A DNA stretch of 64,000 nucleotides from a virus. Taxonomy: Duplodnaviria > Caudoviricetes. Numbering within the stretch: the stretch's first letter is position 1; every line of letters begins with the position of its first letter. Under the pieces are notes generated by a model. It saw only the letters and a list, made by a program, of their open reading frames with translations. It did not search any database and had not been told where the DNA came from. Below, one piece after another: positions 8,964 through 28,610 of this stretch. The stretch is from the IMG/VR virus record IMGVR_UViG_3300026493_000002; one strand, written 5' to 3'. Both the position numbers and the translations under genes were made by a program.

Positions 8964-11900
8964 ATGCCTATTTCTCTCGAAAGCGGGGCGGTCAAGTACA
9001 AAACGCTTGAATACCCCTTCAAGTCTTTCGATGCCATGTCCGAGGATATTGAGTCGTACCAGCATTTGAAGCTGCCGACCTATAACGCGGGCGATGGTCA
9101 TAAAAAGGTCCTGTTCGTGTTGGACTACGTTCCGACCGAGGATTTGCGTAACGGGAAACTGCTGTCGGGTGCACAGGGCAGGCTGCTATCGAACGTCATT
9201 CACCATGTGAGCGAGAAGACCTTCCTCAAGAAGTCGCATCGGTTCTCGTGGATGGCAGTCAGCTACAATGCCTTCCGTACTGCCGGCAAGCCGAAGACCT
9301 TCCAGCAGAACGCACAGCTGGCTTTTGGTAAGCGCGTCGAGTTCATCATCGGCCGCTACAAGCCTGACGTGGTCGTTGTGCTGGGCAGTCGCCCGACCGA
9401 ATACTTCTACAACGAGGAGCTCGACCTCACGGACGGCAAGCAGGGTCCGTGGTATGGTGTACCTCGCCGTAAGACGATCAAGGGCCATGAGTGTACGTTC
9501 TTTAGCACGCTCAGCCTGAACACGTTGGCGACCGGCCAGTCGAGTGGTGAGAACGCGATGATCGGCTACTTCGGCCGTAATCTGGCGAACGCGATCACCA
9601 ACAAGCACCAGTACGCCGTCGATGCTGACCGAATCTCGAACCACAAGACGGTGATGATTGATACCGTCAAGAAGTTCGACAAGCTGATGGACAAGCTGGA
9701 GTCGCACGACGGTCCGGTGGCACTCGATAGTGAAACGGCGAACCTGAATCGTATCGCCAACAAGCTGTTGACCATCCAGTTCGCCAAGTGCCAGGACATT
9801 GGCTACCTGCTTCCGATTCATCACAAGGACACGCCGTTCCTGTCCGATGAATTGAAGTACATCAAGAAGCGGGTGAGGAAGTTCCTCGAAGGCAACAATC
9901 GAAACACGTACCACATCTACACCAACGCGGGGTTCGACCTCAACGTCTTCCGCGCGCAGTTGAAGGTACGGTTCTTCGCCAACAAGCTGTACGACATTCT
10001 CGCCGGCGAGTATGCACTGGACGAGAACCTCAAGTTCATGAGTACGGTGACCGGCGAATACTTCTATTCGTTGGGCAACCTGAGCGTGCAGTACGGCTAC
10101 ACCGGTTACCTGACGGCCGAGTTCGGTAAGAAGAATCGTGCGACCATCGAGAGCCATGACCTGGACGAAAAGCTCCAGCGTTACTGCACCCTCGACGTTG
10201 TGACGCCGTTCGCTATCGCCGAGCAGCAGGTCGCTCGCGCCGAGCATATGGGCCACAAGAAGTTCTTGTCCGTCGTGACGGAACAGGTGTCCGATATGCT
10301 CCATACGTTCTCGCGTATGGAAATCAACGGCAACATGATTGACGTGAACTACCTGTTCTACCTCAAGACGCCGAACTCGCCGATTGAGGCCGAACTGAAC
10401 AAGCTGCAGGACAAGCTGCTCAAGGCGCCGGCCGTAGTCAAGGCCAACAAGCGCCTGATGAAAGCCAAGGGTGTGTCTTCGCAAGGCTGGATGGGCGAAG
10501 TCACCGTCGATATGTTTTCGTTCAACAAGCCCGAGCATAAGCAACTCCTGTTCTTCGATATCCTCAAGCTGGAGCCGCTGACGCAAGGCAAGAGCGGCAA
10601 GGGCAAGATCGACAAGGCGTTCCAGGAGCATTACAAGGATGTGCCCGAAGTCGCCATGTTCCAGAACCTGGGCAAGGCGAAGAAGTTGCGTGATTCCTAC
10701 GTCAACAGCTTCATCAAGCTGCTCGGCAGTTCGGACGACTTCAAGGGCGATCACCGCATTCGACCGCAGTACCAGTACCTCGTGGTGCTGACTGGTCGTA
10801 CCTCGGCAAAGGATCCCAACCTGCAACAGATCCCTGCGCGTAGTGCGTTGGGTAAGCAGATCAAGCGCCTGTTCATTGCCGAGCCTGGCCACCTGTACAT
10901 CAAGGTCGATTACCGTGTTCACGAAGTTCGCTGCTGGGGCCTGATCGCGTTCGACAAGAACCTGGCCAAGGTCTTCCAAGAAGCGAAGGACATGCGCGAT
11001 GAATACCGCCGCAATCCGAATCCCGCTCTGGCCAAACGCCTTAAGCTGGAAGCCGACGTCCACGTCATCAACGCCGCGTACTTCTTCTCGGTCGCCGTCG
11101 ACAAGGTGGACAAGGAGTTGCGTAACGCGGTTAAGGCAGTGGTGTTCGGTCTGATCTATCAGATGGCGGTGAAGACCCTGTCGAACAACCTGGGTAAGAC
11201 GCTGGACTTCACCAAGAACCTGGTGAAGAACTTCCAGAAGCGATTCCCGAAAGCAATGAAGTGGAACGAAGACGTGAAGGCGTCTGCGCGTAGCCAGTTC
11301 TTTGTCGAGTCGCCGCTTGGGTTGCGTCGTCACCTGTGGGGCTATCTGCTGCCTGAGGAAATCCAGCACGCAGAGAAGATCCACGGTGACATGGATCGTC
11401 GTGCAGTGAACAGTCCGGTGCAGGGCATGGGTGCGCAGTTCATGGCCATCGGTGCACGCGCGCTGGACAAGCTGTGGTGGAAGACGCTCAAGAAAGAGAA
11501 GCACGACACCGGCATCAAGATTTCCAACTCGGTTCACGATAGCTTGGAGAACAAGTCTCCGTACGTGACCTTCTTGGAGAACCTCGGCATGGTCGAACAG
11601 GCTCTCACTACCGAAGTGCGTAAGACCGTCCGTGATCGACACGGCTACGACTTCGACGTGGATCTTGAAATCGACTTTGAAATCGGTTCGACTCTCGCCA
11701 ACTGCGACGGCTGGGACTTCTCCCTGTTGCAGCTGGAGGAGCTGGCGTATACCTCCATCCTGTTCCAGAAGGAGGAGTTGAAGTACGACGTGTCCGTGAA
11801 GCGTGCGATGAAGGAAGTATTCGTTGAAGGCTGGGAGAGAGCGCCGGAGTGGTTGAAACTCCAGGCGAAGAACATCGGCTGGAAGTACGACTACGACGTG

Positions 11901-12032
11901 ATCCGCAAGCGACTGGCAGATCGTGCTATCGCCGAAGCCAAGGCTGCTATCGAAGCCGAAGAGAAGCGTAAGGCCGAAGAGGCTGCCAAGGCGGCAGAAG
12001 AAGCCAAGCCGAAGAAGAAGGCCAAGAAGTAG
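8964..12032 (+). CDS. polA: family A DNA polymerase with 3'-5' exonuclease and N-terminal UDG-like domain
   Basis: Exo VALDSET...YCTLDV; TGRTSAKDPNLQQIP; motif A KVDYRVHEVR; motif B RNAVKAVVFGLIY; motif C SVHDSL. Confidence 0.95.
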   Translation: MPISLESGAVKYKTLEYPFKSFDAMSEDIESYQHLKLPTYNAGDGHKKVLFVLDYVPTEDLRNGKLLSGAQGRLLSNVIHHVSEKTFLKKSHRFSWMAVSYNAFRTAGKPKTFQQNAQLAFGKRVEFIIGRYKPDVVVVLGSRPTEYFYNEELDLTDGKQGPWYGVPRRKTIKGHECTFFSTLSLNTLATGQSSGENAMIGYFGRNLANAITNKHQYAVDADRISNHKTVMIDTVKKFDKLMDKLESHDGPVALDSETANLNRIANKLLTIQFAKCQDIGYLLPIHHKDTPFLSDELKYIKKRVRKFLEGNNRNTYHIYTNAGFDLNVFRAQLKVRFFANKLYDILAGEYALDENLKFMSTVTGEYFYSLGNLSVQYGYTGYLTAEFGKKNRATIESHDLDEKLQRYCTLDVVTPFAIAEQQVARAEHMGHKKFLSVVTEQVSDMLHTFSRMEINGNMIDVNYLFYLKTPNSPIEAELNKLQDKLLKAPAVVKANKRLMKAKGVSSQGWMGEVTVDMFSFNKPEHKQLLFFDILKLEPLTQGKSGKGKIDKAFQEHYKDVPEVAMFQNLGKAKKLRDSYVNSFIKLLGSSDDFKGDHRIRPQYQYLVVLTGRTSAKDPNLQQIPARSALGKQIKRLFIAEPGHLYIKVDYRVHEVRCWGLIAFDKNLAKVFQEAKDMRDEYRRNPNPALAKRLKLEADVHVINAAYFFSVAVDKVDKELRNAVKAVVFGLIYQMAVKTLSNNLGKTLDFTKNLVKNFQKRFPKAMKWNEDVKASARSQFFVESPLGLRRHLWGYLLPEEIQHAEKIHGDMDRRAVNSPVQGMGAQFMAIGARALDKLWWKTLKKEKHDTGIKISNSVHDSLENKSPYVTFLENLGMVEQALTTEVRKTVRDRHGYDFDVDLEIDFEIGSTLANCDGWDFSLLQLEELAYTSILFQKEELKYDVSVKRAMKEVFVEGWERAPEWLKLQAKNIGWKYDYDVIRKRLADRAIAEAKAAIEAEEKRKAEEAAKAAEEAKPKKKAKK

Positions 12033-12033
12033 G

Positions 12034-12041
12034 TCTGTAAA
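12034..12041 (+). promoter_or_regulatory. TCTGTAAA candidate phage promoter
   Basis: Directly after the polymerase stop, 64 nt before the next ATG. Confidence 0.6.
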
Positions 12042-12104
12042 TAACCAAGAGTGGCCCAGGACGATCCTGGGCCTTAGTCGTATTGACAGGATGGGGATCC
12101 TCCT

Positions 12105-12893
12105 ATGAATGACATTGACAAGCTCCAGGAGCGCGCCGACCGCATTGATGAATTGCAGTTGCGCGTGCGCTATGGCATCGAGGGTGAGGGTCCGTTCATC
12201 GGGCGTCCCTGCATCCACATCCACAACCTCGGTGATGACGAAGGTCTGGTCCGACGTGACGTTGAGGCCGCGATCATCGCAGCGTACAAGTCATACATGG
12301 ATCCCGAGCGTGAGCCGCGCGTTCCGTGGAGCGCGTTGCAGATCGTGTTCCACTCGCAGGACCTGTCCGACTCGTTCCAGCGTTGCCTCGCGTCCATGCT
12401 GTCCAGCAGCGATGACACCGAAGAAATCGTGATGCTGGAGACGTACTTCCCCAACATCGTGATCGAGACCAATGGCCGTACGCCTCTCGGTCCGCTGTTG
12501 CTGGACGTGCTGCACCTGTATCCCGGCGACGTTCATTTCGTCGTGACGCAGTACATGCCGATGATCGGTCAGGCCTTCGACCCGCGTTCGATCATGACCT
12601 ACATGCGTCCGAAGTCCGAGGTCAACTTCAAGTTCGTGTACGACTGCGGTTCCTTCGATGCTCACCAAATGGCCATCGGGTTCCAACAGCTGGACGAACT
12701 TCTGGCCAAGTACCGCACGCATCAGTTCCTGCGCCCGCGTGAGGCACGTGAGCCCGAACGTTACGTGTGGCTGATCGGCTCAACGCCTGGCGGTCGTCCC
12801 GGCTCCAAGGCCTGCGACGTGCTGCAACGATTCGCGCTCAGTCGCGGCTACAACTTCACTGTCGGCTTCTCCTCACCCTTCTCCCCACGGTAG
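12105..12893 (+). CDS. QueE-like (radical SAM fold) protein lacking the Fe-S cysteine motif
   Basis: GIEGEGPFIGRPCIHI resembles QueE IQGEG..G.P.vFvR; VIETNG and FKFV also match; no CxxxCxxC. Confidence 0.45.
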   Translation: MNDIDKLQERADRIDELQLRVRYGIEGEGPFIGRPCIHIHNLGDDEGLVRRDVEAAIIAAYKSYMDPEREPRVPWSALQIVFHSQDLSDSFQRCLASMLSSSDDTEEIVMLETYFPNIVIETNGRTPLGPLLLDVLHLYPGDVHFVVTQYMPMIGQAFDPRSIMTYMRPKSEVNFKFVYDCGSFDAHQMAIGFQQLDELLAKYRTHQFLRPREAREPERYVWLIGSTPGGRPGSKACDVLQRFALSRGYNFTVGFSSPFSPR

Positions 12894-12917
12894 GCCGACG
12901 CTCTATCAGAGCCCCAT

Positions 12918-13352
12918 ATGAGTCACTCTATCAAAGGCATCGCCGCGTATTTCAACACCGGCGCCTTTACCTTCTTTGAGGAAGAGGCACCCGGCTTCAT
13001 CAATTCCGTTCTGGACAGATTCGGTTCTTACTGCGGTGAGTTGAATGCGGCTGCGGCTCTCGTTGATCAGGACGCAGACTTCCCACCGTTTGCCCTCTGC
13101 GACGACTTCGCCGAGTGTGTGATCGAAGCCTTTGAGGAGCGTGCCACCGAAGCTCGCATTAAACGTCCACGTGTCGCAGAGATTGTAAAGATCCTCGAAC
13201 TGTGTACGTTCACCGCCCTCAGCTATGAGTCGGCGGACAACACCCTTTACGCGCATGTGGATATGTTGATGCCCTCGATCCATGAAGAACTGGCCGAGCG
13301 TGGCGTTGACTTCTACACGCAACCCAAAACCCTGTATACCTACAAGCACTAG
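12918..13352 (+). CDS. hypothetical acidic protein
   Basis: 144 aa ORF filling the gap between genes. Confidence 0.65.
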   Translation: MSHSIKGIAAYFNTGAFTFFEEEAPGFINSVLDRFGSYCGELNAAAALVDQDADFPPFALCDDFAECVIEAFEERATEARIKRPRVAEIVKILELCTFTALSYESADNTLYAHVDMLMPSIHEELAERGVDFYTQPKTLYTYKH

Positions 13353-19127: not shown

Positions 19128-20110
19128 TGCGCCTCGACCTTTCTCTCGAAGGCACCGCTGCCCAGAAGCGCCGCAAGAAAAAGAAAGCTGCGCCCGCCAA
19201 GGACTTGACCTTCACCGAGTCGATGGATGCTCTTGCCACCTTCGACGACGTGCTGCTGACCGGCCGATTGAACGACACGCAGATCACGGCCGAAGTACAG
19301 CAGCCGTGGGCACGCGCCGAACTGGTCGAAGGCGAAGTGCACCAAATGCTCCACATCGTGCCGCTGCGCGATATGCCGGCGGGCACTCTCCTGTACGTCA
19401 ACGGTCAGGTGCCCAACTTCAACGCGGCGACGCTGGTCAACGAGTTGCAGGAGCAGATGCGTCAGTTCCAGAACGCGGTCAACATCGTGCTGCTCATGCG
19501 CAACCAAGATATGCTGCTGGCGAATACGCTGCAGGCGGCTATCAATCGTTGGGCCACGGCCAACGCCGAGACGCTCCAGATCTTGGGCATCAACGCTGAT
19601 GACCTGTACCCGAAGTTCCCGACCGTCCAGGAAACGAAGCTCCGGGAAGGTGATACGGAAGTCTTCGATGAAGACCGGCAGGCCAAGATCGAACACGCCA
19701 AGGATGCCAGCGGCGTGATGCCCCGCATCCACGGCACCGAGTTCCTGATGACGCCGGAAGAAACGGTCGCATACGACGTGCCCGTGATCTTCGCCGCAGA
19801 CGTTATCGAGTTCGGCGACCTCATGAACATCAAGAAAGCCTTCAAGGGCCAGACGGTGTTCCTGTTCGAGTCGGGCATGTTCTTCGACGCCGATCCCGAG
19901 GGCCCCGATTTCTGGGACGTGATCTTCGACTCCCGTTCCGAGTGCAACATCGTTCCGATCTTCCTGCCGTCGGACGTCGAAGCGTGGGCCCAGCTGTTCG
20001 GCGGCAAGATGATGACGCGCTCCGATATCGCCACTCCCGGCTTTGAGAAGGGCGCCATCGTGTTGCGTCGCGGCCGGGTGACGAAAGACACCTTCGAGTT
20101 CACTACCTGA
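19127..20110 (+). CDS. hypothetical protein, polybasic N-terminus
   Basis: 327 aa, TGATG coupling, strong codon bias. Confidence 0.7.
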   Translation: MRLDLSLEGTAAQKRRKKKKAAPAKDLTFTESMDALATFDDVLLTGRLNDTQITAEVQQPWARAELVEGEVHQMLHIVPLRDMPAGTLLYVNGQVPNFNAATLVNELQEQMRQFQNAVNIVLLMRNQDMLLANTLQAAINRWATANAETLQILGINADDLYPKFPTVQETKLREGDTEVFDEDRQAKIEHAKDASGVMPRIHGTEFLMTPEETVAYDVPVIFAADVIEFGDLMNIKKAFKGQTVFLFESGMFFDADPEGPDFWDVIFDSRSECNIVPIFLPSDVEAWAQLFGGKMMTRSDIATPGFEKGAIVLRRGRVTKDTFEFTT

Positions 20111-20120
20111 GTACAGAGCA

Positions 20121-20315
20121 ATGTCTGACAAAACCCACGCACCGATGCCGACCTGCGACTGTCTTCCGTGCAGTCATGTGGAACGGGATCGCCTGCGCAA
20201 TCTGCTGAACAATCGGCCGGCGGTGAATGCCGGTCTGGAAAGTGCGTACGTCAAATGGAGCGGACAGGTGTACGAGTCCGACATGTTGGCACACGCTGGT
20301 ATCCGTCCCAACTAG
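20121..20315 (+). CDS. small hypothetical protein
   Basis: 64 aa, CDCLPC motif. Confidence 0.5.
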   Translation: MSDKTHAPMPTCDCLPCSHVERDRLRNLLNNRPAVNAGLESAYVKWSGQVYESDMLAHAGIRPN

Positions 20316-20322
20316 GTGAGTT

Positions 20323-20751
20323 ATGCGCCTCCACTTCAAAGCTGACAATCAGAACAAGCTGTTGCCGTTCAGTGTCGATCACTGGCAGCGCGTGTTCCTG
20401 CCATACGACAAGCTGATGGTGACTGCCGATTCGGTTGTCGAGGCACCCTCCGTGTTTGAACACTGCGAGCGCGTGGCTCAACGTACTGGTCTGGGCTGGG
20501 AACTGCCTTCGATTGAGACGTTGCAACTGATCGTGGACTTCACCAAGTATCAACCTGCGGCCGATAGCCGTTACTTCCGTTTTGAGCGTGGCTTCTTTTG
20601 GTCGTCCACGCCAACTCCGTGGAGTGACGGTCACCGCTTCGGCATTGAGTTCTTCACGGGCGAAGTGCGCTATCGGCAGATCACCGAGCAGGGAATGGCG
20701 CTTTCTGTGCTGAGGGATTTCCGCCCTCCGGCAGGCAAGGCCCGGCGTTAA
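20323..20751 (+). CDS. DUF1566/Lcl C-terminal domain protein
   Basis: WELPSIETLQLIVDFTKYQPAAD..YF...FFWSSTP matches the family pattern. Confidence 0.7.
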   Translation: MRLHFKADNQNKLLPFSVDHWQRVFLPYDKLMVTADSVVEAPSVFEHCERVAQRTGLGWELPSIETLQLIVDFTKYQPAADSRYFRFERGFFWSSTPTPWSDGHRFGIEFFTGEVRYRQITEQGMALSVLRDFRPPAGKARR

Positions 20752-20752
20752 A

Positions 20753-20760
20753 TCTGTAAA
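20753..20760 (+). promoter_or_regulatory. TCTGTAAA candidate phage promoter heading the modification operon
   Basis: Intergenic, 56 nt before the ParB-like ATG. Confidence 0.65.
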
Positions 20761-20815
20761 TACCAAACGTTATCAACGAGGCCTTAGCGCCAACCACTAC
20801 AAGGCAAACGACAAG

Positions 20816-21634
20816 ATGGGCAAGCACCTGAAACTTACGGACCTGCGTGAGGCCGAATACAACCCGCGAATCATCAGCGCCAAGCGACTGGAGAATCTCC
20901 AGAAGTCCATGCTGCGCTTCGGTGACCTCTCGGGCGTCGTGTTCAACGAGTCCACCAAGAAGCTCGTTTCCGGCCACCAGCGTTTGAAGACGATCCGCGA
21001 AGCCGGCCTCGAAACCGAAATCGTGACGTCCAAGCGCAAGGACAAGCACGGCACCGTGGCAGAAGGCTACATCATCGCCAAGACCCCGGACGGCGAGATT
21101 CGTCTGCCGCTGCGCGTCGTCAACTGGGCCGACAAGAAGGCTGAAATCGCGGCGAACATCGCAGCCAATGCGCACGGCGGTGACTTCGACCGTACCAAGC
21201 TCGGCGCGCTGTTGGTCAAGCTCGAAAAGGGCAAGGCGTTCGACATTGACACGCTGGGCCTCGACCCGCTGTCTCTGCGTGGCCTGATGCAGGTCATGCC
21301 GACGCTGGGCACCAAGGGTGAAGGCGGCGGTGAAGAAGACGGCGAGAGCTTCCCGGAGTACGGCGAAGACAGCTTCGACCTGCATCACACCTGCCCCAAG
21401 TGCAAGTTCCGTTTCAGCGCATCGGCTTCTTCCAAGAAGGCGCCGGGCCCGAAGGAGAACAAGCAGGTCGAGGCAGCCAAGAAGACCAAGGCTGCGAAGA
21501 AGGATGCCGAGAAGAAGGCGTCCAAGAAGTCCAAGAGCGACGACGATGCACCGGTGAAGAAAAAGAAGTCCAAGAACAAGGACGAGCCGGCGAAGAAGTC
21601 GAAGAAGGACAAGTTCAAGAAGCTGCGTAAGTAA
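20816..21634 (+). CDS. ParB/Srx-like domain protein with zinc ribbon and Lys-rich tail
   Basis: LREAEYNPRIIS...FGDLSGVVFN...LVSGHQRL ParB N-terminal pattern; FPEYGED..HHTCPKCKFRF. Confidence 0.8.
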   Translation: MGKHLKLTDLREAEYNPRIISAKRLENLQKSMLRFGDLSGVVFNESTKKLVSGHQRLKTIREAGLETEIVTSKRKDKHGTVAEGYIIAKTPDGEIRLPLRVVNWADKKAEIAANIAANAHGGDFDRTKLGALLVKLEKGKAFDIDTLGLDPLSLRGLMQVMPTLGTKGEGGGEEDGESFPEYGEDSFDLHHTCPKCKFRFSASASSKKAPGPKENKQVEAAKKTKAAKKDAEKKASKKSKSDDDAPVKKKKSKNKDEPAKKSKKDKFKKLRK

Positions 21635-21647
21635 CCGGAGAACAGAC

Positions 21648-22529
21648 ATGGCGCGTAAGGCCCAGAACAAGATCGCAGTGCCGGCATTCAAACGCCGTAA
21701 GTCGGCAAGCGATGCCAAACCGCGCATTCGTCTGCGCTTGACCAAGAGCCTGGAGAAGCACAAGGACGAGCCGTTGGCTATCCTGTTGTCCTCGGGCCTC
21801 GACTCCAATGCCGTGCTGTTCTCGGCATTGGAGCTCGGCATGAAGCCGCATATCTACAGCTTCACGCTCGATGACCGCGAGGCTCGTGACTTCCGTATCG
21901 CTCGACAGACGGCCGAGACCTTCGGCCTAAAGTTCACACCGATCTACCTTCCGACCGACCTCAAGAAGGTCAAGAAGGGCCTGATCAGTACCGTGAAGGA
22001 GCTCGACGCCAGCGGCAAGTCGGCCATCGAATGTCTGTACGCTTTCAAGTACGCGGTCGACTCCATCAAGGAGAAGAACATCGTCAGCGGTCTGGCGGCC
22101 GACATTTACTTCGTGCTGTCCAAGAAGGGCTGTATGCACTACAAGGACTGCGCAGACGACTACCGCATTCCGCGACACGCTACGGTCAAGGGTCCCACGT
22201 CGCAGACTTCCAAGCTGCGTGCCTACTGCAGGAAAAAGGGCAAGCGCTGGTTGAGTCCGTGGCTGACCGATCAGATGATGGACGAGTTCCGTGGTACCAG
22301 CTGGGATGACGTGAACAAGCCCAAGCAGAAGAACCCGATCCACGTGCAGTACCCGGAGTTCCTGGCTCACGCCAAGACCTACCAACACACCAACCTGCAG
22401 CTGGGCGACAGCGGTATCTCGGCACTGTTCACGCAGCTGCTGGACGATCCTCACTGGAATCCCGAGCGCCGGTTCAAGAGCATGACGGGCGTGTACAACC
22501 GCCTCGTTCGTGGAGAGATTACCAAATGA
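21648..22529 (+). CDS. asparagine-synthetase-like ATP-dependent amide ligase (CmoY-like), no glutaminase domain
   Basis: PP-loop AILLSSGLDS; DFRIARQTAETFGL; VSGLAADIYF; SPWLTDQMM; all AsnB synthetase-domain features. Confidence 0.8.
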   Translation: MARKAQNKIAVPAFKRRKSASDAKPRIRLRLTKSLEKHKDEPLAILLSSGLDSNAVLFSALELGMKPHIYSFTLDDREARDFRIARQTAETFGLKFTPIYLPTDLKKVKKGLISTVKELDASGKSAIECLYAFKYAVDSIKEKNIVSGLAADIYFVLSKKGCMHYKDCADDYRIPRHATVKGPTSQTSKLRAYCRKKGKRWLSPWLTDQMMDEFRGTSWDDVNKPKQKNPIHVQYPEFLAHAKTYQHTNLQLGDSGISALFTQLLDDPHWNPERRFKSMTGVYNRLVRGEITK

Positions 22530-23131
22530 TCTTTGAACTGAGCCGCAAAGGCTACAGGATCGAGAAGCTGGAGAAGAGCGCACGCGGTGTCGTCGCTCTC
22601 CTCCCTATCTTCGACTACCTGCGAACGTTGCCCGGCATGAGCCTGTGCACGGATCTGGATGCCCAGATCTCATACGTCGATCAGGAGGACCTCGACCTCT
22701 ACGTGGCCCACAATTTGGACTCGATCTTCGACGTTCCCGCAGAGGGACAAGGCGTGATCGCCATAGCGGGCGTCAAGAACCACCGGTCGTACAGCTACGA
22801 GCCGCGCCCGTACGTGTTCAACGAACCGGGCAGCTTCGGCATGAAGCACGTTGCTCGCGCCGCCGAACTGTGTTGCCTTGCGGTGATGCCCAACTTCCGG
22901 GGCAAGGGGCTTTGCCGCTCACTCACTCTACATCGCCTCGACAAGATGCCCGACAACCGTACGGCAGTCATTGAGTTGCGGCCGAGTGCTGACAGCCTCA
23001 ACCAGCTTTCGCGTGAGCCGGAAGCGCACGCATCTACGACCAGTGTGCAGCGCATCGCGCAGCGCCTGGGATTCAAGTACGAGGGCCGCGCTCTCGCAGA
23101 CAACAGCATGGTGCTGGTAGCACCGTTCTAA
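22526..23131 (+). CDS. GNAT-family N-acetyltransferase
   Basis: ELCCLAVMPNFRGKGLCRSL acetyl-CoA motif A; RLGFKYEG motif B; ATGA overlap. Confidence 0.8.
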   Translation: MIFELSRKGYRIEKLEKSARGVVALLPIFDYLRTLPGMSLCTDLDAQISYVDQEDLDLYVAHNLDSIFDVPAEGQGVIAIAGVKNHRSYSYEPRPYVFNEPGSFGMKHVARAAELCCLAVMPNFRGKGLCRSLTLHRLDKMPDNRTAVIELRPSADSLNQLSREPEAHASTTSVQRIAQRLGFKYEGRALADNSMVLVAPF

Positions 23132-23142
23132 GGACTTCAACC

Positions 23143-24039
23143 GTGCAAATGACCAATGTAGACCTCATTAGCGCCCCGTTTGGTGAGGGCGCTGGTGTTC
23201 TGGGATCCGAGAACGGCCCGAGTATGCTGGTTAAGCTCGGACTCTGCTCGGCGATCGGGCACGAAGGACTGTGCATCAATCAGTTCCACGAAATCAAGGC
23301 GAAGGTGCATCCGTATGTGCCTCAGCCCAGCCTCAAGTGCGGCGGTCACACGATTGCCTACAACGATGCGATCTACGAACGCTGCATCCTGAGTCTGCGC
23401 GACGACAGGTTCCCGCTGATGCTCGCCGGCGATCATTCGCTCTCCATCGGTTCGATCCTCGCCGCCAGCGACTACGCGAAGGAGAATCGGAAGAAGTTCA
23501 TCTGCCTGTACATCGACGCCCACACGGACTTCAACACTCCGGAGACGACGATGACGGGCAACACCCACGGCATGACGCTTGCCGCTGCCGGTGGCCTGTT
23601 CCTCGATCTTGCGGTTGAGGCCTCGGAGAACCACCTGGACCTGTCCAGCATCATCTATTACGGTGCGCGTGACATTGACCACGAGGAGCAGAAGCTGCTG
23701 GATGAACATCCGGAGATTACCGTCATCGACATGAAGGACCAGTTCCACCTTCTGACGCTGATGGATCTGCTGGACGAACGTCTCGACGAGGACACCCACA
23801 TCCACGTCAGCTTCGATGTGGACAGTCTGGATCCGAATCACTTCCTCGCTACTGGCCTGAACGTGCCGAACGGTCTCCTTCCACAGGAAGTCGAGGCCCT
23901 CTTCCAGGATCTGCGTGCCAGCGGCGCGGTCAAATCCCTTGACGTGGTTGAGTACAACCCGTCCAAGGACAACGCCACTTTTGAAGGCGGCCTGATGGTC
24001 AACACCATCGTGTCCCGTCTCTTCCACAACGCCCGGTGA
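23143..24039 (+). CDS. arginase (binuclear Mn ureohydrolase)
   Basis: GDHS, DAHTDFNTPETTMTGNTHG, GARDIDHEE, SFDVDSLDP, DVVEYNP: all Mn ligands and arginase-type substrate residues. Confidence 0.9.
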   Translation: MQMTNVDLISAPFGEGAGVLGSENGPSMLVKLGLCSAIGHEGLCINQFHEIKAKVHPYVPQPSLKCGGHTIAYNDAIYERCILSLRDDRFPLMLAGDHSLSIGSILAASDYAKENRKKFICLYIDAHTDFNTPETTMTGNTHGMTLAAAGGLFLDLAVEASENHLDLSSIIYYGARDIDHEEQKLLDEHPEITVIDMKDQFHLLTLMDLLDERLDEDTHIHVSFDVDSLDPNHFLATGLNVPNGLLPQEVEALFQDLRASGAVKSLDVVEYNPSKDNATFEGGLMVNTIVSRLFHNAR

Positions 24040-25052
24040 CAGACGTGTCCAAGAAAATCTTCAAGATGCCTACGATGAAGGCAATCAACGCCAAGGAGAA
24101 GCACTTCAAGGGTATCAGCACGTTCAGTGGCTGCGGTGGCAGTTCGACTGGCGTGAAGATGGCCGGCGTCAAGGTGCTGGTGGCAACCGAGTTCATCAAG
24201 CCTGCGATTGAGACCTACAAGGCGAACCACAAGGGCACCAAAGTGCTGGGTGATGACATTCGCAAGGTCGACTGGGAAGCTGTGCGCAAGGAGTTCAAGC
24301 TCAAGCGCGGTCAGCTGGACTTCTCCGAGGGCAGTCCGCCGTGCAAGTCGTTCTCCACTGCTGGCACCAAGAGTGAAGGCTGGGGCGAGGAAAAGAAGTA
24401 CTCCGAGAACGTCAGTCAGCGTACCGACGACCTGTTCTACGAGGAAATGCGCAAGCTGTCCGAGTTCATGCCCAAGACCTTTGTGTGCGAGAACGTCAAG
24501 GGCATGGTCGAAGGTGACGCCAAGGGTTACTTCCTTGAAATCCTCCGTGACCTCAAGGCGGTCGGCTACAACGTCCGTGCGCAGGTGTTGAATGCTGCGC
24601 GTCTCGGTGTTCCGCAGGCCCGTGAGCGCATCATCTTCGTTGGCGTCCGTGACGATCTGGCGAAGAAGGGCCACATGCCCGTATTCCCCAAGCCGCAGAA
24701 GCACGAAATCTACGTCACTGACGTGCTGCCGAAGATCGCCTACCTCAAGTCGAAGAAGAACGGCATCATGCAGTACGTGCCGGCTACCATCCCGAGTCCG
24801 ACCATTGTTGCATCCGATGGCCTGAACTCGGAGACTGCGGGCTTCTCGACCGGCGGCTTCATCGAGACCATTGAGGGCGAACGTCGCAAGTACACCATCG
24901 AGGAGTTGAAGAAAATCTTCACCTTCCCCGAGGACTTCGTGTTCACCGGCAACTATCGCCAGCAGTTCGAGCGCATCGGCCGTTCGGTTCCGCCGTTGAT
25001 GATGTACCACGTCGTCCGCGAAATCCGTAGGCAGATCCTCGAAAAGCTGTAA
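24036..25052 (+). CDS. C5-cytosine DNA methyltransferase fold, predicted carboxymethyltransferase (CmoX-like)
   Basis: FSGCGG (I), GSPPCKSFS (IV), ENVKG (VI), QARERIIFVG (VIII); motif X reads IGRSVPP instead of GNSV. Confidence 0.85.
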   Translation: MTDVSKKIFKMPTMKAINAKEKHFKGISTFSGCGGSSTGVKMAGVKVLVATEFIKPAIETYKANHKGTKVLGDDIRKVDWEAVRKEFKLKRGQLDFSEGSPPCKSFSTAGTKSEGWGEEKKYSENVSQRTDDLFYEEMRKLSEFMPKTFVCENVKGMVEGDAKGYFLEILRDLKAVGYNVRAQVLNAARLGVPQARERIIFVGVRDDLAKKGHMPVFPKPQKHEIYVTDVLPKIAYLKSKKNGIMQYVPATIPSPTIVASDGLNSETAGFSTGGFIETIEGERRKYTIEELKKIFTFPEDFVFTGNYRQQFERIGRSVPPLMMYHVVREIRRQILEKL

Positions 25053-25053
25053 A
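25047..25053 (+). promoter_or_regulatory. CTGTAAA candidate promoter overlapping the stop codon
   Basis: Motif includes the TAA of the transferase gene, 29 nt before the next GTG. Confidence 0.4.
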
Positions 25054-25081
25054 CCATCCTCACATCCAATCGGAGATTCCC

Positions 25082-25726
25082 GTGAGCGAAGAACAGAACG
25101 AAACGGCTGTCGTTGTGCCGCCGGAACCCAAGACCATCACGGTGCTGATTCTCGGCACCGATCGCAACGTCGGCCAGGACAAGCTCGGTGAGCAGCTGGC
25201 CGCACAGTTGATCGCTGGTGGCATCAAGGTGCAGCACACGCCGACCGATGACTACGCGCGCATCCGCGCTGGCGAACTGCCCAGCCTGATCGAGAGCCAC
25301 CTGAGCAAGAAGCACGCCATCAACGTGCTGTCCTACAACGGTGCGCTGTCGCATCCCGAGACCGGCCCCGTGGCCCTCGCGCTGCTGTACACGGTGAAGC
25401 CCAGCCTCGTCATCATGTGCCACGCGGGCTTTCGCGGTACGCAGGACGGTGTCAGCGTGCAGGGCGTTGGCCTTGCATCTGAAATCGCCAACACACTGCT
25501 GTTCGCTCGCCGCTTCAATCCCGATGCGAAGCTGGCGGGCATCAATCTGCATGGCGAAGGCCAGACCGAGGCCGACCTCAAGACCACGATTGACGAGACC
25601 TATCCCCTGGGTCAGTCGTTCGGCGTCGAAGTGTTCTCCTTCGACAGTGGCTCCGACGATTCGGAACTGCCCGAGGAGTTCGTTGAATCCATTGACGTGC
25701 TGGCACGAAAGGCGAAGTCACGATGA
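25082..25726 (+). CDS. DUF1611-like (DgcN C-terminal) protein with degenerate P-loop
   Basis: ILGTDRNVGQ vs family GTDcavGK; YNGALSHP vs EGQGSLxHP; LLYTVKPSLVIMCH vs LLxGsxPDxxILCH; KLAGINL. Confidence 0.6.
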   Translation: MSEEQNETAVVVPPEPKTITVLILGTDRNVGQDKLGEQLAAQLIAGGIKVQHTPTDDYARIRAGELPSLIESHLSKKHAINVLSYNGALSHPETGPVALALLYTVKPSLVIMCHAGFRGTQDGVSVQGVGLASEIANTLLFARRFNPDAKLAGINLHGEGQTEADLKTTIDETYPLGQSFGVEVFSFDSGSDDSELPEEFVESIDVLARKAKSR

Positions 25727-26571
25727 ACGCGATTACTGATACGGAGTTCCAGGACCAGGGCGTCGTCTCGCCTCCGTGCGTCAAGAAGGTCGATGACCAC
25801 CAGCCGGGCGCGAAGTGGGAGTTCAATGCCGACGTCGCCGTCAAGTTCGATGACATGCTGGGCCGCTCGATTCCGGGCTACCTGCAGATGCGCGAACTGG
25901 CGTACGAACTGGGCAAGAAGTTCATCCCCGATCAGAACGTCAACGTGATCGACCTGGGCGCTTCGCGTGGTGAGTCGGCTTCGGCCTTCATCGACACGCC
26001 TGCGTTCTCGGGCGCCAACTACTTCCTCAGCGAAGTCAGCGAGCCGATGCTGGATCAGATGCGTGAGCGCTGGAACGGCGTGTCGAACGTCCATCCGGTC
26101 AGCTACGACCTGCGGCGCAAGTACACCGATATCGCCTACGCGATCCACGATCCCGTGCGCAACATGGTGAACAACGGCAAGATACCAAGCACGCCGTACA
26201 CGCTGCATCCGACGACGCTGGTGCAGGCTATCCTGACCCTGATCTTCGTGCCGATCAACTTCCGGCAGGGCATCCTCAAGGGTGTCCACGAGGGCTTGGC
26301 TCCGGGCGGCGCGTTCATCATGGTCGAGAAGGTCCTGGGCGACAGCGCCGAAATGCAGGACCTGTTGGTCGATGCCTACCACGATCACAAGCATCGTCAC
26401 GGCTACAGCTGGGAAGACATTGAGCGCAAGCGTGCGTCTCTGGAGGGCGTGCAGGTTCCCGTGCGCCACGAGGAGAACATCGCCATGCTGCGCTCGGCCG
26501 GCTTCCGCAACGTCGAAACCTTCTGGCGCCATCTGAACTTCGTCGGGTACATCTGCATCAAGGACCAGTGA
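25723..26571 (+). CDS. cmoA: carboxy-S-adenosyl-L-methionine synthase-like
   Basis: WEFNADVAVKFDDMLGRSIPGY, DLGASRG, GLAPGGAFIMVEK, GYSWEDIERKRASL align with E. coli CmoA, including the KR arginine (codon 26431-26433). Confidence 0.88.
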   Translation: MNAITDTEFQDQGVVSPPCVKKVDDHQPGAKWEFNADVAVKFDDMLGRSIPGYLQMRELAYELGKKFIPDQNVNVIDLGASRGESASAFIDTPAFSGANYFLSEVSEPMLDQMRERWNGVSNVHPVSYDLRRKYTDIAYAIHDPVRNMVNNGKIPSTPYTLHPTTLVQAILTLIFVPINFRQGILKGVHEGLAPGGAFIMVEKVLGDSAEMQDLLVDAYHDHKHRHGYSWEDIERKRASLEGVQVPVRHEENIAMLRSAGFRNVETFWRHLNFVGYICIKDQ

Positions 26572-26641
26572 CCTCTTAGAGGCTCACCGCGACAGTCTAC
26601 AACGGGCCTTCTCAGGAAGGCCCCATGAAGAGGGCTTCACT

Positions 26642-27115
26642 ATGTTCGGTTGGCGTAACATCCTGACCGCACCGAAGAACAAACGTATCCTCGTGTGCGG
26701 CAACAACTGGTCCGACTCGCAGGGTCCATTGAAGGAGCCGGTGATTGCTCAGTGGAATGAAAGTCGTGAACGCTGGGAGACTGGCACCGGCATTCTGGGT
26801 ACTTACGGCATTCGCCCGACCCACTGGCAGCCGCTCCCTGAGGTCTACTCCACGTCGTCGATGGATCCGAAGCACATGATCTACGTTGACACGGGTCGCG
26901 TCCTGAGCATTCACGCCGCGGTGAAGGTCGTGCTGGCGTACGAGGGTGTTCCGTTCGACGTGGTGACTGGCCCTCACGGTGCAGGCCTGCTGGTCGAACC
27001 CCAGCATCTGGACAAGATGAATCGCGTTGCCAATGATTGGGGCGGGCTGCGTGACTCCATTCCACGCGCGCTGTTCAACGCTACCGTGGACTACCAACAG
27101 AGGAACAAGCCGTGA
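26642..27115 (+). CDS. DUF551-like phage protein
   Basis: WRNILTAPKNKRIL...W...PTHWQPLP. Confidence 0.65.
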   Translation: MFGWRNILTAPKNKRILVCGNNWSDSQGPLKEPVIAQWNESRERWETGTGILGTYGIRPTHWQPLPEVYSTSSMDPKHMIYVDTGRVLSIHAAVKVVLAYEGVPFDVVTGPHGAGLLVEPQHLDKMNRVANDWGGLRDSIPRALFNATVDYQQRNKP

Positions 27116-27249
27116 GCGACACCCTGAAATGCGACTACTGCGGCTACGTGTACCAGCTCGGTCTCAGCCTGTACAAGGCCGGCGACAAGTGCCCGAAGTG
27201 CAACGGTCGCGGCATTCTCTGTTCCAAAGGCTCGCGAGGTAACCCGTGA
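27112..27249 (+). CDS. 45 aa zinc-ribbon protein (not in the ORF track)
   Basis: GTG..TGA overlapping both neighbours by GTGA; CDYC...CPKC. Confidence 0.65.
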   Translation: MSDTLKCDYCGYVYQLGLSLYKAGDKCPKCNGRGILCSKGSRGNP

Positions 27250-28025
27250 GCAGCCACGTTCTTCGAGTAGTGGACAACCCCACACTTCCGCTCGTTCCGG
27301 AATTCTCGGTCGCCGTCGGTCATTCCATCGGTGACTTCGGAGCGCAGGCCAGCAGTCTCGGAGGCATCGTCTATGCAACGTTGCTTAAGAAGAGCTCCAT
27401 TCCGAATGAGGAGTCGGCGCGTCGTCTGCACGCTTCGATATCCAAGCTGTACACGGAAGATCTGGATCGACCGATAGCGGGCATGACCGCTCAGCTTGAT
27501 GACTACAGCATTCCTCTCTTGCGCATGTCTAGCGCCGAGATTGACCAGTTGGTATATCTCGGATTCAATCCGATCCGCTGCGCAATCCAGTTCGGCGTTG
27601 TTCCGTGGGCGCAGCATACGTCTCATGGGTACAGCATCCAGCTGCTGCGCCTCTTGGTGACGGCTATTCATGCCATTTCAGTACGGGCGGGGCGTGCCTG
27701 CGAAGCCTGTTCGCTGGAAGGACCTGCACGCAATCACGCCCTGTACCACCACTCTGCTGAGGTCTTCATGGAGCTCCAGCAGTTCAGGCTTTCGCATATG
27801 TTCCAACTGGTAGCAGGCAGACACGGAGCGCACGGTATCGCCATTATGCTTGAGCGCGACGCCCCGCCGTTCGGAAAGAACTTCCTTGAGGAGGCTCTGT
27901 GCATAAGCACGGACGTCATGGAGGTCGGTAACGTTTTCGGAACCCTCCACCAGTTGCAGATCCTGCATGAACTGTGGCCGAGCATGTTCACTGGTGGCCC
28001 GCAAATCTGTAAAGGGAATCGGTAG
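27246..28025 (+). CDS. hypothetical protein
   Basis: 259 aa ORF, weaker codon bias. Confidence 0.55.
   Translation: MSSHVLRVVDNPTLPLVPEFSVAVGHSIGDFGAQASSLGGIVYATLLKKSSIPNEESARRLHASISKLYTEDLDRPIAGMTAQLDDYSIPLLRMSSAEIDQLVYLGFNPIRCAIQFGVVPWAQHTSHGYSIQLLRLLVTAIHAISVRAGRACEACSLEGPARNHALYHHSAEVFMELQQFRLSHMFQLVAGRHGAHGIAIMLERDAPPFGKNFLEEALCISTDVMEVGNVFGTLHQLQILHELWPSMFTGGPQICKGNR
28006..28013 (+). promoter_or_regulatory. TCTGTAAA candidate phage promoter
   Basis: At the end of the upstream gene, 33 nt before ATG 28046. Confidence 0.55.
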
Positions 28026-28045
28026 TTTCAGCTGAGGAAATATCC

Positions 28046-28498
28046 ATGCGCGAATTGAAGTTGCTACGCAAGCGCGTAAAGGCAATGTGGAAAATGGAAG
28101 AGGAGTTGTCGCCTCCGGAGCGCAAGCTCCATCAGTGGCAATTCCTCTCGACCCAGACGGGCATCCCGTATCTCGTAGGCAAGGGTGACGCAAACACCTT
28201 CTTCTACAAGATCGGCGAGAAGGGCGAAATGCAGTACGTCATGCCCGACAAGATGTTTGCCATCTTGGACAAGTGGTGCGGCGAGAAGTACGTCATGTAC
28301 GCCATCGCTCGCAACTCCAACGTGAAGAAGGCCAAGCGCCAATCGAAGGTCCTCGCCGACCTGTTGAAGCGCACCAACTCCAAGTATGCGGACTACCACA
28401 TCGTGGGTATCACCGCCGACAGCCGAGTGGACAAGCTGTACTCGATGAAGACAGGCCTGACGGCCAACCAGTGGGTGCCGTTGAAGGTCAAGCCGTAG
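28046..28498 (+). CDS. hypothetical basic protein
   Basis: GAGG RBS, strong codon bias. Confidence 0.7.
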   Translation: MRELKLLRKRVKAMWKMEEELSPPERKLHQWQFLSTQTGIPYLVGKGDANTFFYKIGEKGEMQYVMPDKMFAILDKWCGEKYVMYAIARNSNVKKAKRQSKVLADLLKRTNSKYADYHIVGITADSRVDKLYSMKTGLTANQWVPLKVKP

Positions 28499-28610
28499 AT
28501 GCAGTGTGACGTGTTCAGAAACCGGTGCGCACGTTCTGCCCGGAAACACTAATTTCTGAACACGTTTGGCACACCAAGGTGAGCCTCTTCCACACTACAG
28601 GTACTTCCCC

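Follow-up and report, generated by a model that had tools for sequence, protein, structure and literature searches.

A conserved CmoY-GNAT-arginase block in phage Cmo clusters and a tentative ornithine-derived amide of 5-carboxymethylcytosine

In Synechococcus phage S-B43, the enzymes CmoA, CmoX and CmoY produce 5-carboxymethylcytosine (5cxmC) and 5-glycylcarboxymethylcytosine (Yang et al., Nat Commun 2025, PMC12783734; published December 2025). The core chemistry and ligases for "alternative amines" are both already in print, but that work left open what is joined to the carboxyl group by phages other than S-B43. A gene cluster that bears on this question lies in a stretch of 64,000 nucleotides (the window) from a jumbo phage of soil, a relative of Pseudomonas phage PaBG. 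A first-pass annotation of the window had pointed to a phage CmoA/CmoX/CmoY trio, which is that of S-B43, and had proposed that 5cxmC is made and an amine joined to its carboxylate. The three core homologues of the S-B43 enzymes, which carry the published hallmark residues, agree with this proposal.

The cluster comprises seven genes, all co-oriented on the + strand and spanning positions 20816-26571. Neighbouring genes overlap by 4 nt at three junctions (22526-22529, 24036-24039 and 25723-25726), and the remaining intergenic gaps within the unit measure 11-29 nt. The unit is headed by TCTGTAAA (20753-20760, + strand), a candidate phage promoter motif whose function we infer from its over-representation in the window: it occurs in 9 copies, on the + strand only, versus 0.67 expected from shuffles, and the copies are mostly intergenic and upstream of genes. 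A sigma-70 consensus was searched for near position 20753 and not found. As the next copy of TCTGTAAA lies downstream at 28006, the transcription unit may extend beyond 26571 into three further small genes. Co-orientation, overlaps and the single leading motif had been described in the first-pass annotation and were recovered here, and its family calls (ParB-like, AsnB-like, GNAT, arginase, C5-cytosine, DUF1611-like and CmoA-like) are borne out by profile or structure matches. All seven genes show dN/dS < 1 against orthologues on other contigs, and this purifying selection indicates that they are real. The cluster is located in the replication module, flanked by helicase, DNA polymerase and clamp genes. 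Contigs from RNA libraries were considered as evidence of transcription and rejected, because the region lies there in contigs of 6.6-74 kb with flat depth and in records of up to 243 kb, which points to DNA.

The predicted DNA cytosine C5-carboxymethyltransferase CmoX (24036-25052, 338 aa; Pfam C5 DNA methylase, 2.5e-53) has its best PDB match in 8YF3, the SpCmoX of S-B43 (1.4e-58), while the next C5-methyltransferase follows at 5.5e-25. It combines a C5-methyltransferase fold with the catalytic SPPC motif (S100-P101-P102-C103, aligned to S95-C98 of SpCmoX), which is the CmoX search criterion of PMC12783734, and it carries E152 of the ENV motif. In the sequence ER-I-G-R316-S-V-P-P, Arg316 occupies the position of SpCmoX R350 (ER-V-G-R-M-V-P-P), which touches the carboxylate of carboxy-SAM (PMC12783734), whereas ordinary C5-methyltransferases such as HaeIII (I-G-N-A-V-P) have Asn. 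The protein is 36% identical to S-B43 CmoX and 80% identical to PaBG gp309. Across its target-recognition region (about residues 215-271) no alignment to SpCmoX is obtained, so that the GC specificity of SpCmoX cannot be transferred to it.

Carboxy-SAM would be provided by CmoA (25723-26571, 282 aa; TIGR00740 1.6e-33, phrog_4752 1.2e-63), a predicted carboxy-SAM synthase that reaches 116 bits over the whole protein, short of the TIGR00740 equivalog cut-off of 193, and shares 30% identity with S-B43 CmoA. Its PDB matches are E. coli CmoA (4gek, 9.7e-23) and YecO (1im8). In the alignment with 4gek, residues Y53, D77, G79, S81, E202 and R237 correspond to E. coli Y39, D62, G64, S66, E164 and R199; of these, Arg199 forms the salt bridge to the carboxylate and Y39, D62, G64 and S66 contact the SAM derivative (PMC3663124). 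Given the 8YF3 match, SPPC motif and Arg316 of CmoX and the carboxy-SAM residues of CmoA, the CmoA/CmoX/CmoY core of the window is, judged by its sequence, the published 5-carboxymethylcytosine-amide system and as such already known.

The ParB-like protein at the head of the unit (20816-21634, 272 aa; ParB/Srx N-domain, phrog_620 2.4e-32; Pfam ParB_N 0.0066, under its cut-off) is 65% identical to PaBG gp310. Its orthologues adjoin CmoX in PaBG and on contigs L002 and L015, and ParBc proteins adjoin CmoX on 1660 contigs (PMC12783734), so that the window resembles the reported loci in this neighbour also. By analogy with other CmoX loci, it is a predicted DNA-binding accessory.

The CmoY-like PP-loop amide ligase (21648-22529, 293 aa; Asn_synthase 6.9e-9, phrog_26038 5.6e-58) lies in the same cluster as CmoX and CmoA, has the PP-loop S48-S-G-L-D-S53 and bears a basic N-terminal tail. 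It is 38% identical to PaBG gp306 and 30% identical to S-B43 CmoY over 82% of its length (E 7e-25), a similarity at which the two would stay unlinked under the network threshold of 1e-56 in PMC12783734. The gene is strongly constrained (dN/dS 0.05-0.15). We infer an ATP-dependent, AMP-forming amide ligase. It has no N-terminal glutaminase/amidase domain, which argues that the ligated amine is not ammonia derived from glutamine. Several residues are invariant between this protein and the glycine-specific SpCmoY, whose amine-binding pocket residues appear in a figure only and are unnamed in the text (PMC12783734).

The next gene encodes a GNAT-fold acyl-CoA N-acyltransferase (22526-23131, 201 aa), assigned from its model and structure matches, its Pfam score of 18.8 (E 0.0021) being below the cut-off of 20.7. 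The AlphaFold model (pLDDT 84) matches solved GNATs at Z 12.5-14.2, and in the ESM Atlas the protein scores 0.96 against GNAT clusters. The motif ELCCLxVxPxxRGxG is kept; F-R-G-K-G-L after the ELCCL strand represents the beta4-alpha3 acyl-CoA pyrophosphate-binding motif (Q/R-x-x-G-x-G/A). The best Foldseek match, 1yle, is tied with many others, and the structural neighbours therefore carry no substrate information. Since the GNAT is paired with the ligase, the ligated compound probably has a second amine, and ornithine fits. GNAT homologues follow CmoY on L002, L006, L010, L013, L015 and L016 and, marginally, on L017 (hmmsearch E 0.0072). On L015, L016 and L017 the homologous pairs occur without arginase, a point against the ornithine reading: the chemistry does not need arginase, and the host may supply the amine. 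A GNAT-fold precedent in phage DNA hypermodification is Mom of phage Mu (PMC7261163); its sequence relationship with the window GNAT is undetectable, and Mom acts alone on adenine N6, whereas coupling to an amide ligase sets the window GNAT apart.

The arginase-family ureohydrolase (23143-24039, 298 aa; Pfam 4.5e-44) is predicted to be of the L-arginine type. It scores 180.7 bits against the arginase model TIGR01229, below the equivalog cut-off of 227.6, compared with 57 bits for agmatinase and 52 bits for formimidoylglutamase, and its top PDB matches are arginases only. In an alignment of the phage arginases, the Mn ligands H98, D125, H127, D129, D225 and D227 and the catalytic residues H142 and E270 are invariant, matching the binuclear site H101, D124, H126, D128, D232 and D234 and the catalytic pair H141 and E277 of arginase, and N131, T138 (Ser/Thr in relatives), N140, D179 and E182 are kept in all five phage copies. 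In rat and human arginase I, N130, S137 and N139 hold the alpha-carboxylate of L-arginine, and D183 and E186 its alpha-amino group. With the Mn ligands and these contacts all invariant, the conserved residues favour an amino acid in its free form as substrate and point to conversion of free arginine to ornithine. Agmatine as substrate is disfavoured by the bit scores (57 for agmatinase against 181 for arginase), and tethered arginine by the invariant alpha-carboxylate and alpha-amino contacts. Cellular L-arginases of the RocF type (EC 3.5.3.1) share fold, Mn ligands and substrate-contact residues with the window enzyme, which differs from them in being phage-encoded, in lying within a DNA-modification operon and in scoring below the NCBIfam equivalog cut-off. 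The five Cmo-linked phage arginases group together in a single clade (SH-aLRT 100, quick tree), with identities down to 38% across lineages; the nearest bacterial arginases, from Luteimonas and other Pseudomonadota, are about 35% identical to the window enzyme. No relatives were found in IMG/VR, those in cultured phages were limited to two unannotated Staphylococcus phage records (30% identity), and full-text literature searches found no phage arginase tied to DNA modification.

The remaining member, a truncated DUF1611/DgcN-like protein (25082-25726, 214 aa; Pfam DUF1611_C 1.1e-12), contains the C-terminal P-loop domain only (profile positions 72-181 of 201), while full-length relatives of 350-376 aa combine DUF1611_N with the C-terminal domain. 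Its P-loop reads G-T-D-R-N-V-G-Q (G-N-D-A-D-T-G-Q on L010) where full-length members end in G-K, and the lysine of G-x-D-x-x-x-G-K is thus missing. The closest structures to the model (pLDDT 76) are the DgcN N-acetyltransferase 7xrj (E 2.5e-8) and those of DUF1611 proteins. The protein has only 9 matches among 1.8 billion representatives, and the gene evolves nearly neutrally relative to its L014 orthologue (dN/dS 0.72). The protein may serve as an additional subunit, for acyl transfer or for regulation, or may be in decay; we regard the gene as optional, fast-evolving and possibly degenerate. In Alexandravirus jumbo phages (Dickeya phage AD1 gp016-gp019 and Erwinia relatives), a distant homologue (28% identity, E 9e-7) has CmoA on one side and a CmoY-like ligase on the other. 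Unlike the window protein, DUF1611 of AD1 (gp017) has its full length of 351 aa and keeps the G-K of the P-loop. The Alexandravirus clusters have neither arginase nor a homologous GNAT, and their CmoX and ParB genes lie about 15 kb away from the CmoA/DUF1611/ligase genes.

How far is this gene set shared? The CmoY-GNAT-arginase block was found inside Cmo clusters of no fewer than five metagenomic phage lineages that have diverged from one another, namely the window with the near-identical L005, the group L010/L011/L014, and L002, L006 and L013. Its order and tight coupling are kept even though the surrounding Cmo genes are rearranged. In cultured phages no such block was found. The closest cultured relative, the jumbo phage PaBG (Baikalvirus; CmoX 80%, ParB 65%, CmoY 38% identity), has its cluster (gp310-gp305) in a similar region with a different order, ParB-CmoX-CmoA-150 aa-CmoY-203 aa, and with no arginase, recognisable GNAT or DUF1611 gene; a literature search found no description of PaBG DNA modification. 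The S-B43 cluster shares with the window three homologous enzymes, the SPPC motif, the carboxy-SAM-binding Arg, CmoA Arg199 and the ligase PP-loop, but lacks genes for a GNAT, an arginase and a DUF1611 protein, all three of which are unmentioned in PMC12783734. In L002, an anti-Thoeris Tad2-like gene adjoins the Cmo cluster. The first-pass annotation had taken the embedded arginase, GNAT and DUF1611-like genes as signs of an undescribed base and had suggested looking for arginase and GNAT beside CmoA/CmoX in other phages. The co-occurrence was seen, and a conserved block absent from the published account strengthens the proposal. The accessory set is, however, not one unit: the GNAT-CmoY pairing is wider, arginase was added later, and a DUF1611-like gene is an optional member.

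From these features, the operon is predicted to carry out a post-replicative cytosine hypermodification of the CmoA/CmoX/CmoY kind. CmoA would convert SAM and prephenate to carboxy-SAM, CmoX would transfer the carboxymethyl group onto C5 of cytosine in phage DNA, and the CmoY-like ligase would adenylate the carboxylate of 5cxmC and couple an amine to it; these steps follow from homology with characterised enzymes. The steps that go beyond them are derived solely from gene content and residue conservation. The phage arginase would cleave free L-arginine to L-ornithine and urea and so give the bulk amine supply needed for modifying many genome copies. Ornithine would be the amine ligated by CmoY, and the GNAT, translationally coupled to CmoY, would N-acylate its second amino group, either before ligation, thereby setting the reactive amine, or afterwards on the DNA. 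The predicted final product is 5-carboxymethylcytosine N-acyl-ornithine amide; the sequence would fit linkage through either the alpha- or the delta-amine, and an acetyl or another acyl group. Ligation of ornithine with N-acylation of its second amine is our best reading, to which we hold tentatively. That the window phage thus makes an undescribed base, with a viral arginase dedicated to feeding nucleic-acid modification, is possible but somewhat doubtful.

Other readings keep the core chemistry and change the accessory steps. The amine might instead come from a different diamine or diamino acid, for instance lysine, or putrescine formed from ornithine by the host decarboxylase; the GNAT would cap its free amine and arginase would feed the pool indirectly. 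Putrescine-bearing phage bases are known, e.g. alpha-putrescinylthymine, the tied structural neighbours of the GNAT include the polyamine acetyltransferases SpeG and PaiA, and CmoY-GNAT pairs occur without arginase. We nevertheless consider this unlikely: a decarboxylase gene, looked for in the Cmo clusters, is absent from all of them, arginase sits inside the block beside ligase and GNAT, and the residues common to CmoY and SpCmoY are compatible with an alpha-amino-acid substrate. Alternatively, L-arginine itself might be ligated to 5cxmC, its guanidino group trimmed by arginase on the DNA to leave the ornithine amide, and the GNAT might acylate this product. The ligase-GNAT-arginase gene order would suit such sequential tailoring, and some members of the arginase family, e.g. 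OspR in landornamide biosynthesis, turn arginine within peptides into ornithine. However, the active site of arginase is a deep cleft, and the invariance of the contacts to a free alpha-amino group and alpha-carboxylate in all five phage arginases is unexpected if the alpha-amine is locked in an amide, which makes this route quite improbable.

To a passenger role we likewise give little credence. Arginase, possibly with the GNAT and the DUF1611-like protein, would then be an auxiliary metabolic or anti-defence gene (arginine depletion, polyamine balance), and the base would be a known one, e.g. the glycine amide. Phage operons are mosaic in make-up, divergence is much faster in the accessory genes than in CmoX and CmoY, and the Tad2-like gene beside the L002 cluster would be in keeping with anti-defence cargo. 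Against this stand the survival of the block through Cmo rearrangements and the scarcity of arginase relatives in IMG/VR and cultured phages.

In conclusion, the conserved CmoY-GNAT-arginase block inside Cmo clusters is new here, while the core chemistry is already known. Cmo clusters recruit GNAT, arginase, DUF1611 and a 150-aa family, which were not counted in the first survey. With its conserved ligase-GNAT-arginase extension, the locus offers a concrete candidate for amine choice that is testable by LC-MS. If the ornithine reading is true, it would add a further hypermodified cytosine, the first of the Cmo type to require a tailoring acyltransferase, and the pair of ligase and acyltransferase would be useful in enzymatic DNA functionalisation. 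The arginase would be the first dedicated to nucleic-acid modification, and the phage would redirect host arginine metabolism into the supply for modifying its DNA.

The seven genes that the first-pass annotation had described as co-oriented and, for several of them, coupled by 4-nt overlaps lie on the plus strand in the order ParB-like (20816-21634), CmoY-like ligase (21648-22529), GNAT (22526-23131), arginase (23143-24039), CmoX (24036-25052), DUF1611-like (25082-25726) and CmoA (25723-26571). The ORF list bears this out, with three such overlaps and gaps of 11-29 nt at the remaining junctions. As shown for Synechococcus phage S-B43, carboxy-SAM (Cx-SAM) is the product of CmoA, the C5-methyltransferase homologue CmoX produces 5-carboxymethylcytosine (5cxmC), and glycine is added by CmoY, an asparagine-synthetase-like ligase (PMC12783734). 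The trio named in the annotation agrees with the work of Yang et al. (PMC12783734), and all three window proteins are homologous to its members. The window CmoX matches the S-B43 CmoX structure 8YF3 at 1.4e-58 (36% identity), compared with 5.5e-25 for the next methyltransferase. It carries the motif S100-P-P-C103 and, within G-R-S-V-P-P, R316. The latter corresponds to R350 of the S-B43 enzyme, a contact of the Cx-SAM carboxylate that ordinary enzymes replace by Asn. The target-recognition regions of the two CmoX enzymes are different. E. coli CmoA and H. influenzae YecO are matches of the window CmoA, which shares 30% identity with S-B43 CmoA and retains Arg199, the residue diagnostic of Cx-SAM binding, as well as Y39, D62, G64, S66 and E164. 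The ligase has the PP-loop S-S-G-L-D-S, lacks a glutaminase domain and is 30% identical to the S-B43 CmoY. From these homologies and residues, the operon very probably encodes a Cmo-type core system.

Two further features of the core proteins were observed. The arginase-linked CmoY ligases have a Lys/Arg-rich N-terminal tail (residues 1-31; 21648-21740), absent from the PaBG, AD1 and S-B43 ligases, which may be a DNA-binding extension. The CmoX orthologue of another phage contig (L006:2362-4263) is split by an intein with Intein_splicing, Hint and LAGLIDADG matches, and PHROG 36001 (715 aa) seems to represent this family of CmoX proteins with an intein.

The feature as annotated began at 20753, which is the first base of the octamer TCTGTAAA. 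The window has nine copies of it against 0.67 expected, all on the plus strand (2007, 8893, 12034, 20753, 28006, 29815, 30707, 37385 and 62179), and they are mostly intergenic, shortly after the stop codon of one gene and before the gene that follows. We regard the octamer as a candidate for a phage-specific promoter or a motif in transcript processing; at the operon start a phage promoter element is plausible. A scan for sigma-70 promoters and terminators found none near the operon start, and the window counts did not exceed those of shuffles. CTGTAAAC is a promoter-like motif of the same phage genome. Since the next copy of TCTGTAAA lies at 28006, the transcription unit may reach past 26571 over three more small genes that show no recognisable function; the 259-aa gene at 27246-28025 was rejected as an eighth pathway gene for want of any family, PDB or Atlas signal. 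Around the operon lie genes for two helicases, a DNA polymerase and a clamp-like processivity factor.

The closest cultured relative of the phage is the Pseudomonas jumbo phage PaBG, with 73.6% DNA identity across common genes. Megablast gave no match elsewhere, and none between the first 25 kb of the window and cultured phages. Soil metagenomes contain near-identical DNA, with records that reach 243 kb. In three soil runs labelled as metatranscriptomic RNA-Seq (X2-X4), positions 19500-28500 lie on contigs of 6.6-74 kb with flat depth; these libraries contain the phage genome as DNA, or cover it uniformly. Due to the long contigs and flat depth, which indicate phage DNA in the library, these runs are of no use for transcription or operon boundaries.

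Close relatives of the arginase are rare: only four were found among 5.8 billion proteins (76%, 52%, 50% and 38% identity), and none in an IMG/VR scan. Among cultured phages, only two unannotated Staphylococcus phage records match, at 30% identity. Each of the four lies directly 3' of a homologous GNAT, which is itself preceded by a CmoY-like ligase. The co-occurrence of arginase and GNAT with Cmo genes in other phages, for which the annotation had suggested a search, was found repeatedly: contigs L010, L011 and L014 keep the gene order of the window, the 152-kb contig L002 has ParB-146 aa-CmoX-CmoY-GNAT-arginase-CmoA, L006 has CmoY-GNAT-arginase-CmoX with the intein within CmoX, and L013 has CmoY-GNAT-arginase. 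The order within the block is constant while the surrounding genes are rearranged between lineages. In a quick tree with long branches, the five phage arginases form one clade separate from bacterial arginases.

The GNAT is associated with the ligase beyond these loci. Going down the list of CmoY homologues, ligases 74%, 68% and 53% identical to that of the window are still followed by a GNAT, and arginase is missing from all three loci. In hmmsearch, two of the three GNATs show clear homology to that of the window (8.5e-16 and 7.8e-10). The other one is marginal on the same profile (0.0072), but scores 1.2e-9 with Pfam GNAT and groups by BLAST with the GNAT of contig L016 (1.8e-26). Because these loci lack arginase, the ligase-GNAT pair is the older unit, and the arginase joined it later, in a sub-clade with ligases at least 86% identical. 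The pair may also work outside the Cmo context: at L017:4938-7503 it lies 3' of the gene for a 353-aa protein whose metallopeptidase motif resembles that of anthrax lethal factor, and CmoX and CmoA are absent within 6 kb. The GNAT is modelled (pLDDT 84) with a standard GNAT fold and an acyl-CoA binding motif. Its structural neighbours are tied at Z 12.5-14.2, and the top Foldseek match, the arginine/ornithine succinyltransferase AstA (1yle), was discarded as a substrate clue, being tied with dozens of unrelated GNATs. PaBG gp305, AD1 gp019 and Yen9-02 gp254 were rejected as GNAT homologues for lack of similarity. Complex prediction for CmoY with GNAT scored 0.00, which speaks neither for nor against binding.

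The accessory genes, which had been read as one set, do not behave as such: the GNAT pairs with CmoY beyond arginase loci, and the DUF1611-like gene occurs only in the window lineage and that of L010/L014. Its product models as the C-terminal domain of a DgcN-type N-acetyltransferase; the N-terminal domain is missing, and Gln takes the place of the P-loop Lys in both lineages. In Dickeya phage AD1 (Alexandravirus), gp017 (L007:4995-6050), encoded between CmoA and a CmoY-like ligase, is a DUF1611 protein of full length whose G-K P-loop is intact, and tblastn matches over two unnamed genes suggest the same placement in Erwinia relatives. A 150-aa family (phrog_23597) stands beside CmoA or CmoY in clusters without arginase (PaBG gp307, L001:6663-7115; L015:7338-7793; L016:8205-8657) and represents another, uncounted Cmo accessory. 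In contig L002, the gene directly 3' of CmoA (11794-12996) encodes 400 aa including a Tad2-like (anti-Thoeris) domain, and a SET-domain gene lies at 4956-5318.

The dN/dS ratio is 0.72 for the DUF1611-like gene, 0.05-0.15 for CmoY (dS about 0.5-0.8), 0.08-0.32 for CmoX, about 0.25-0.4 for GNAT and 0.2-0.5 for arginase. The window CmoY (21648-22529) is 86-98% identical to those of L002, L013 and L014, while the adjoining GNAT and arginase share only 39-74%. CmoY is under unusually strong constraint, or was exchanged more recently, relative to the rest of the operon.

We propose that CmoA would provide Cx-SAM, CmoX would carboxymethylate cytosine in replicated phage DNA, the phage arginase would convert free arginine to ornithine, CmoY would adenylate the 5cxmC carboxylate and join ornithine to it, and the GNAT would acylate the amine left over, either ahead of ligation or following it. 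The last three steps follow from indirect reasoning. Coupling of the ligase to a tailoring N-acyltransferase implies that the substrate has two amines, and ornithine is proposed because the arginase, the only metabolite-producing enzyme of the block, makes such a compound. By our rough estimate, the modification of a genome of about 250 kb in many copies would use up much more amine than a normal ornithine pool contains, and the arginase would supply it. That the ligated amine is ornithine, acylated on its second amine, is our tentative assignment, to which we give slightly less than an even chance. A different di-amine in place of ornithine, for example putrescine or lysine, we consider unlikely.

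The arginase sequences bear on a further route, in which arginine is ligated first and then trimmed on DNA. In alignment, all five phage arginases keep every Mn ligand, the proton-shuttle His and the guanidinium-binding Glu, as well as the positions matching the alpha-carboxylate and alpha-amino contacts of arginase I for L-arginine. The window protein scores 181 bits with the arginase model, below its equivalog cut-off, versus 57 bits with that for agmatinase. The conserved residues and the higher arginase score argue for an enzyme acting on free L-arginine, not agmatine. Arginine whose alpha-amine is already amide-bound fits such an active site poorly, and we consider the trimming route improbable. 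Just as improbable, in our estimate, is that the accessory genes have nothing to do with the base; the constant CmoY-GNAT-arginase order speaks against that reading.

Since the Cmo core system with its nearby ParB and the notion of other amines have been published before, the operon is no new kind of system: ParBc proteins are frequent near Cmo genes, and other ligase clusters probably use amines remaining to be identified (PMC12783734). That paper on S-B43 mentions neither arginase, acetyltransferase, GNAT nor DUF1611, as an accessory or otherwise, nor PaBG or Pseudomonas. Full-text literature searches did not link any phage arginase to DNA modification, and gave no description of DNA modification in PaBG. 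The locus is therefore a variant of the Cmo system, from which a new base is predicted in specific and testable terms.
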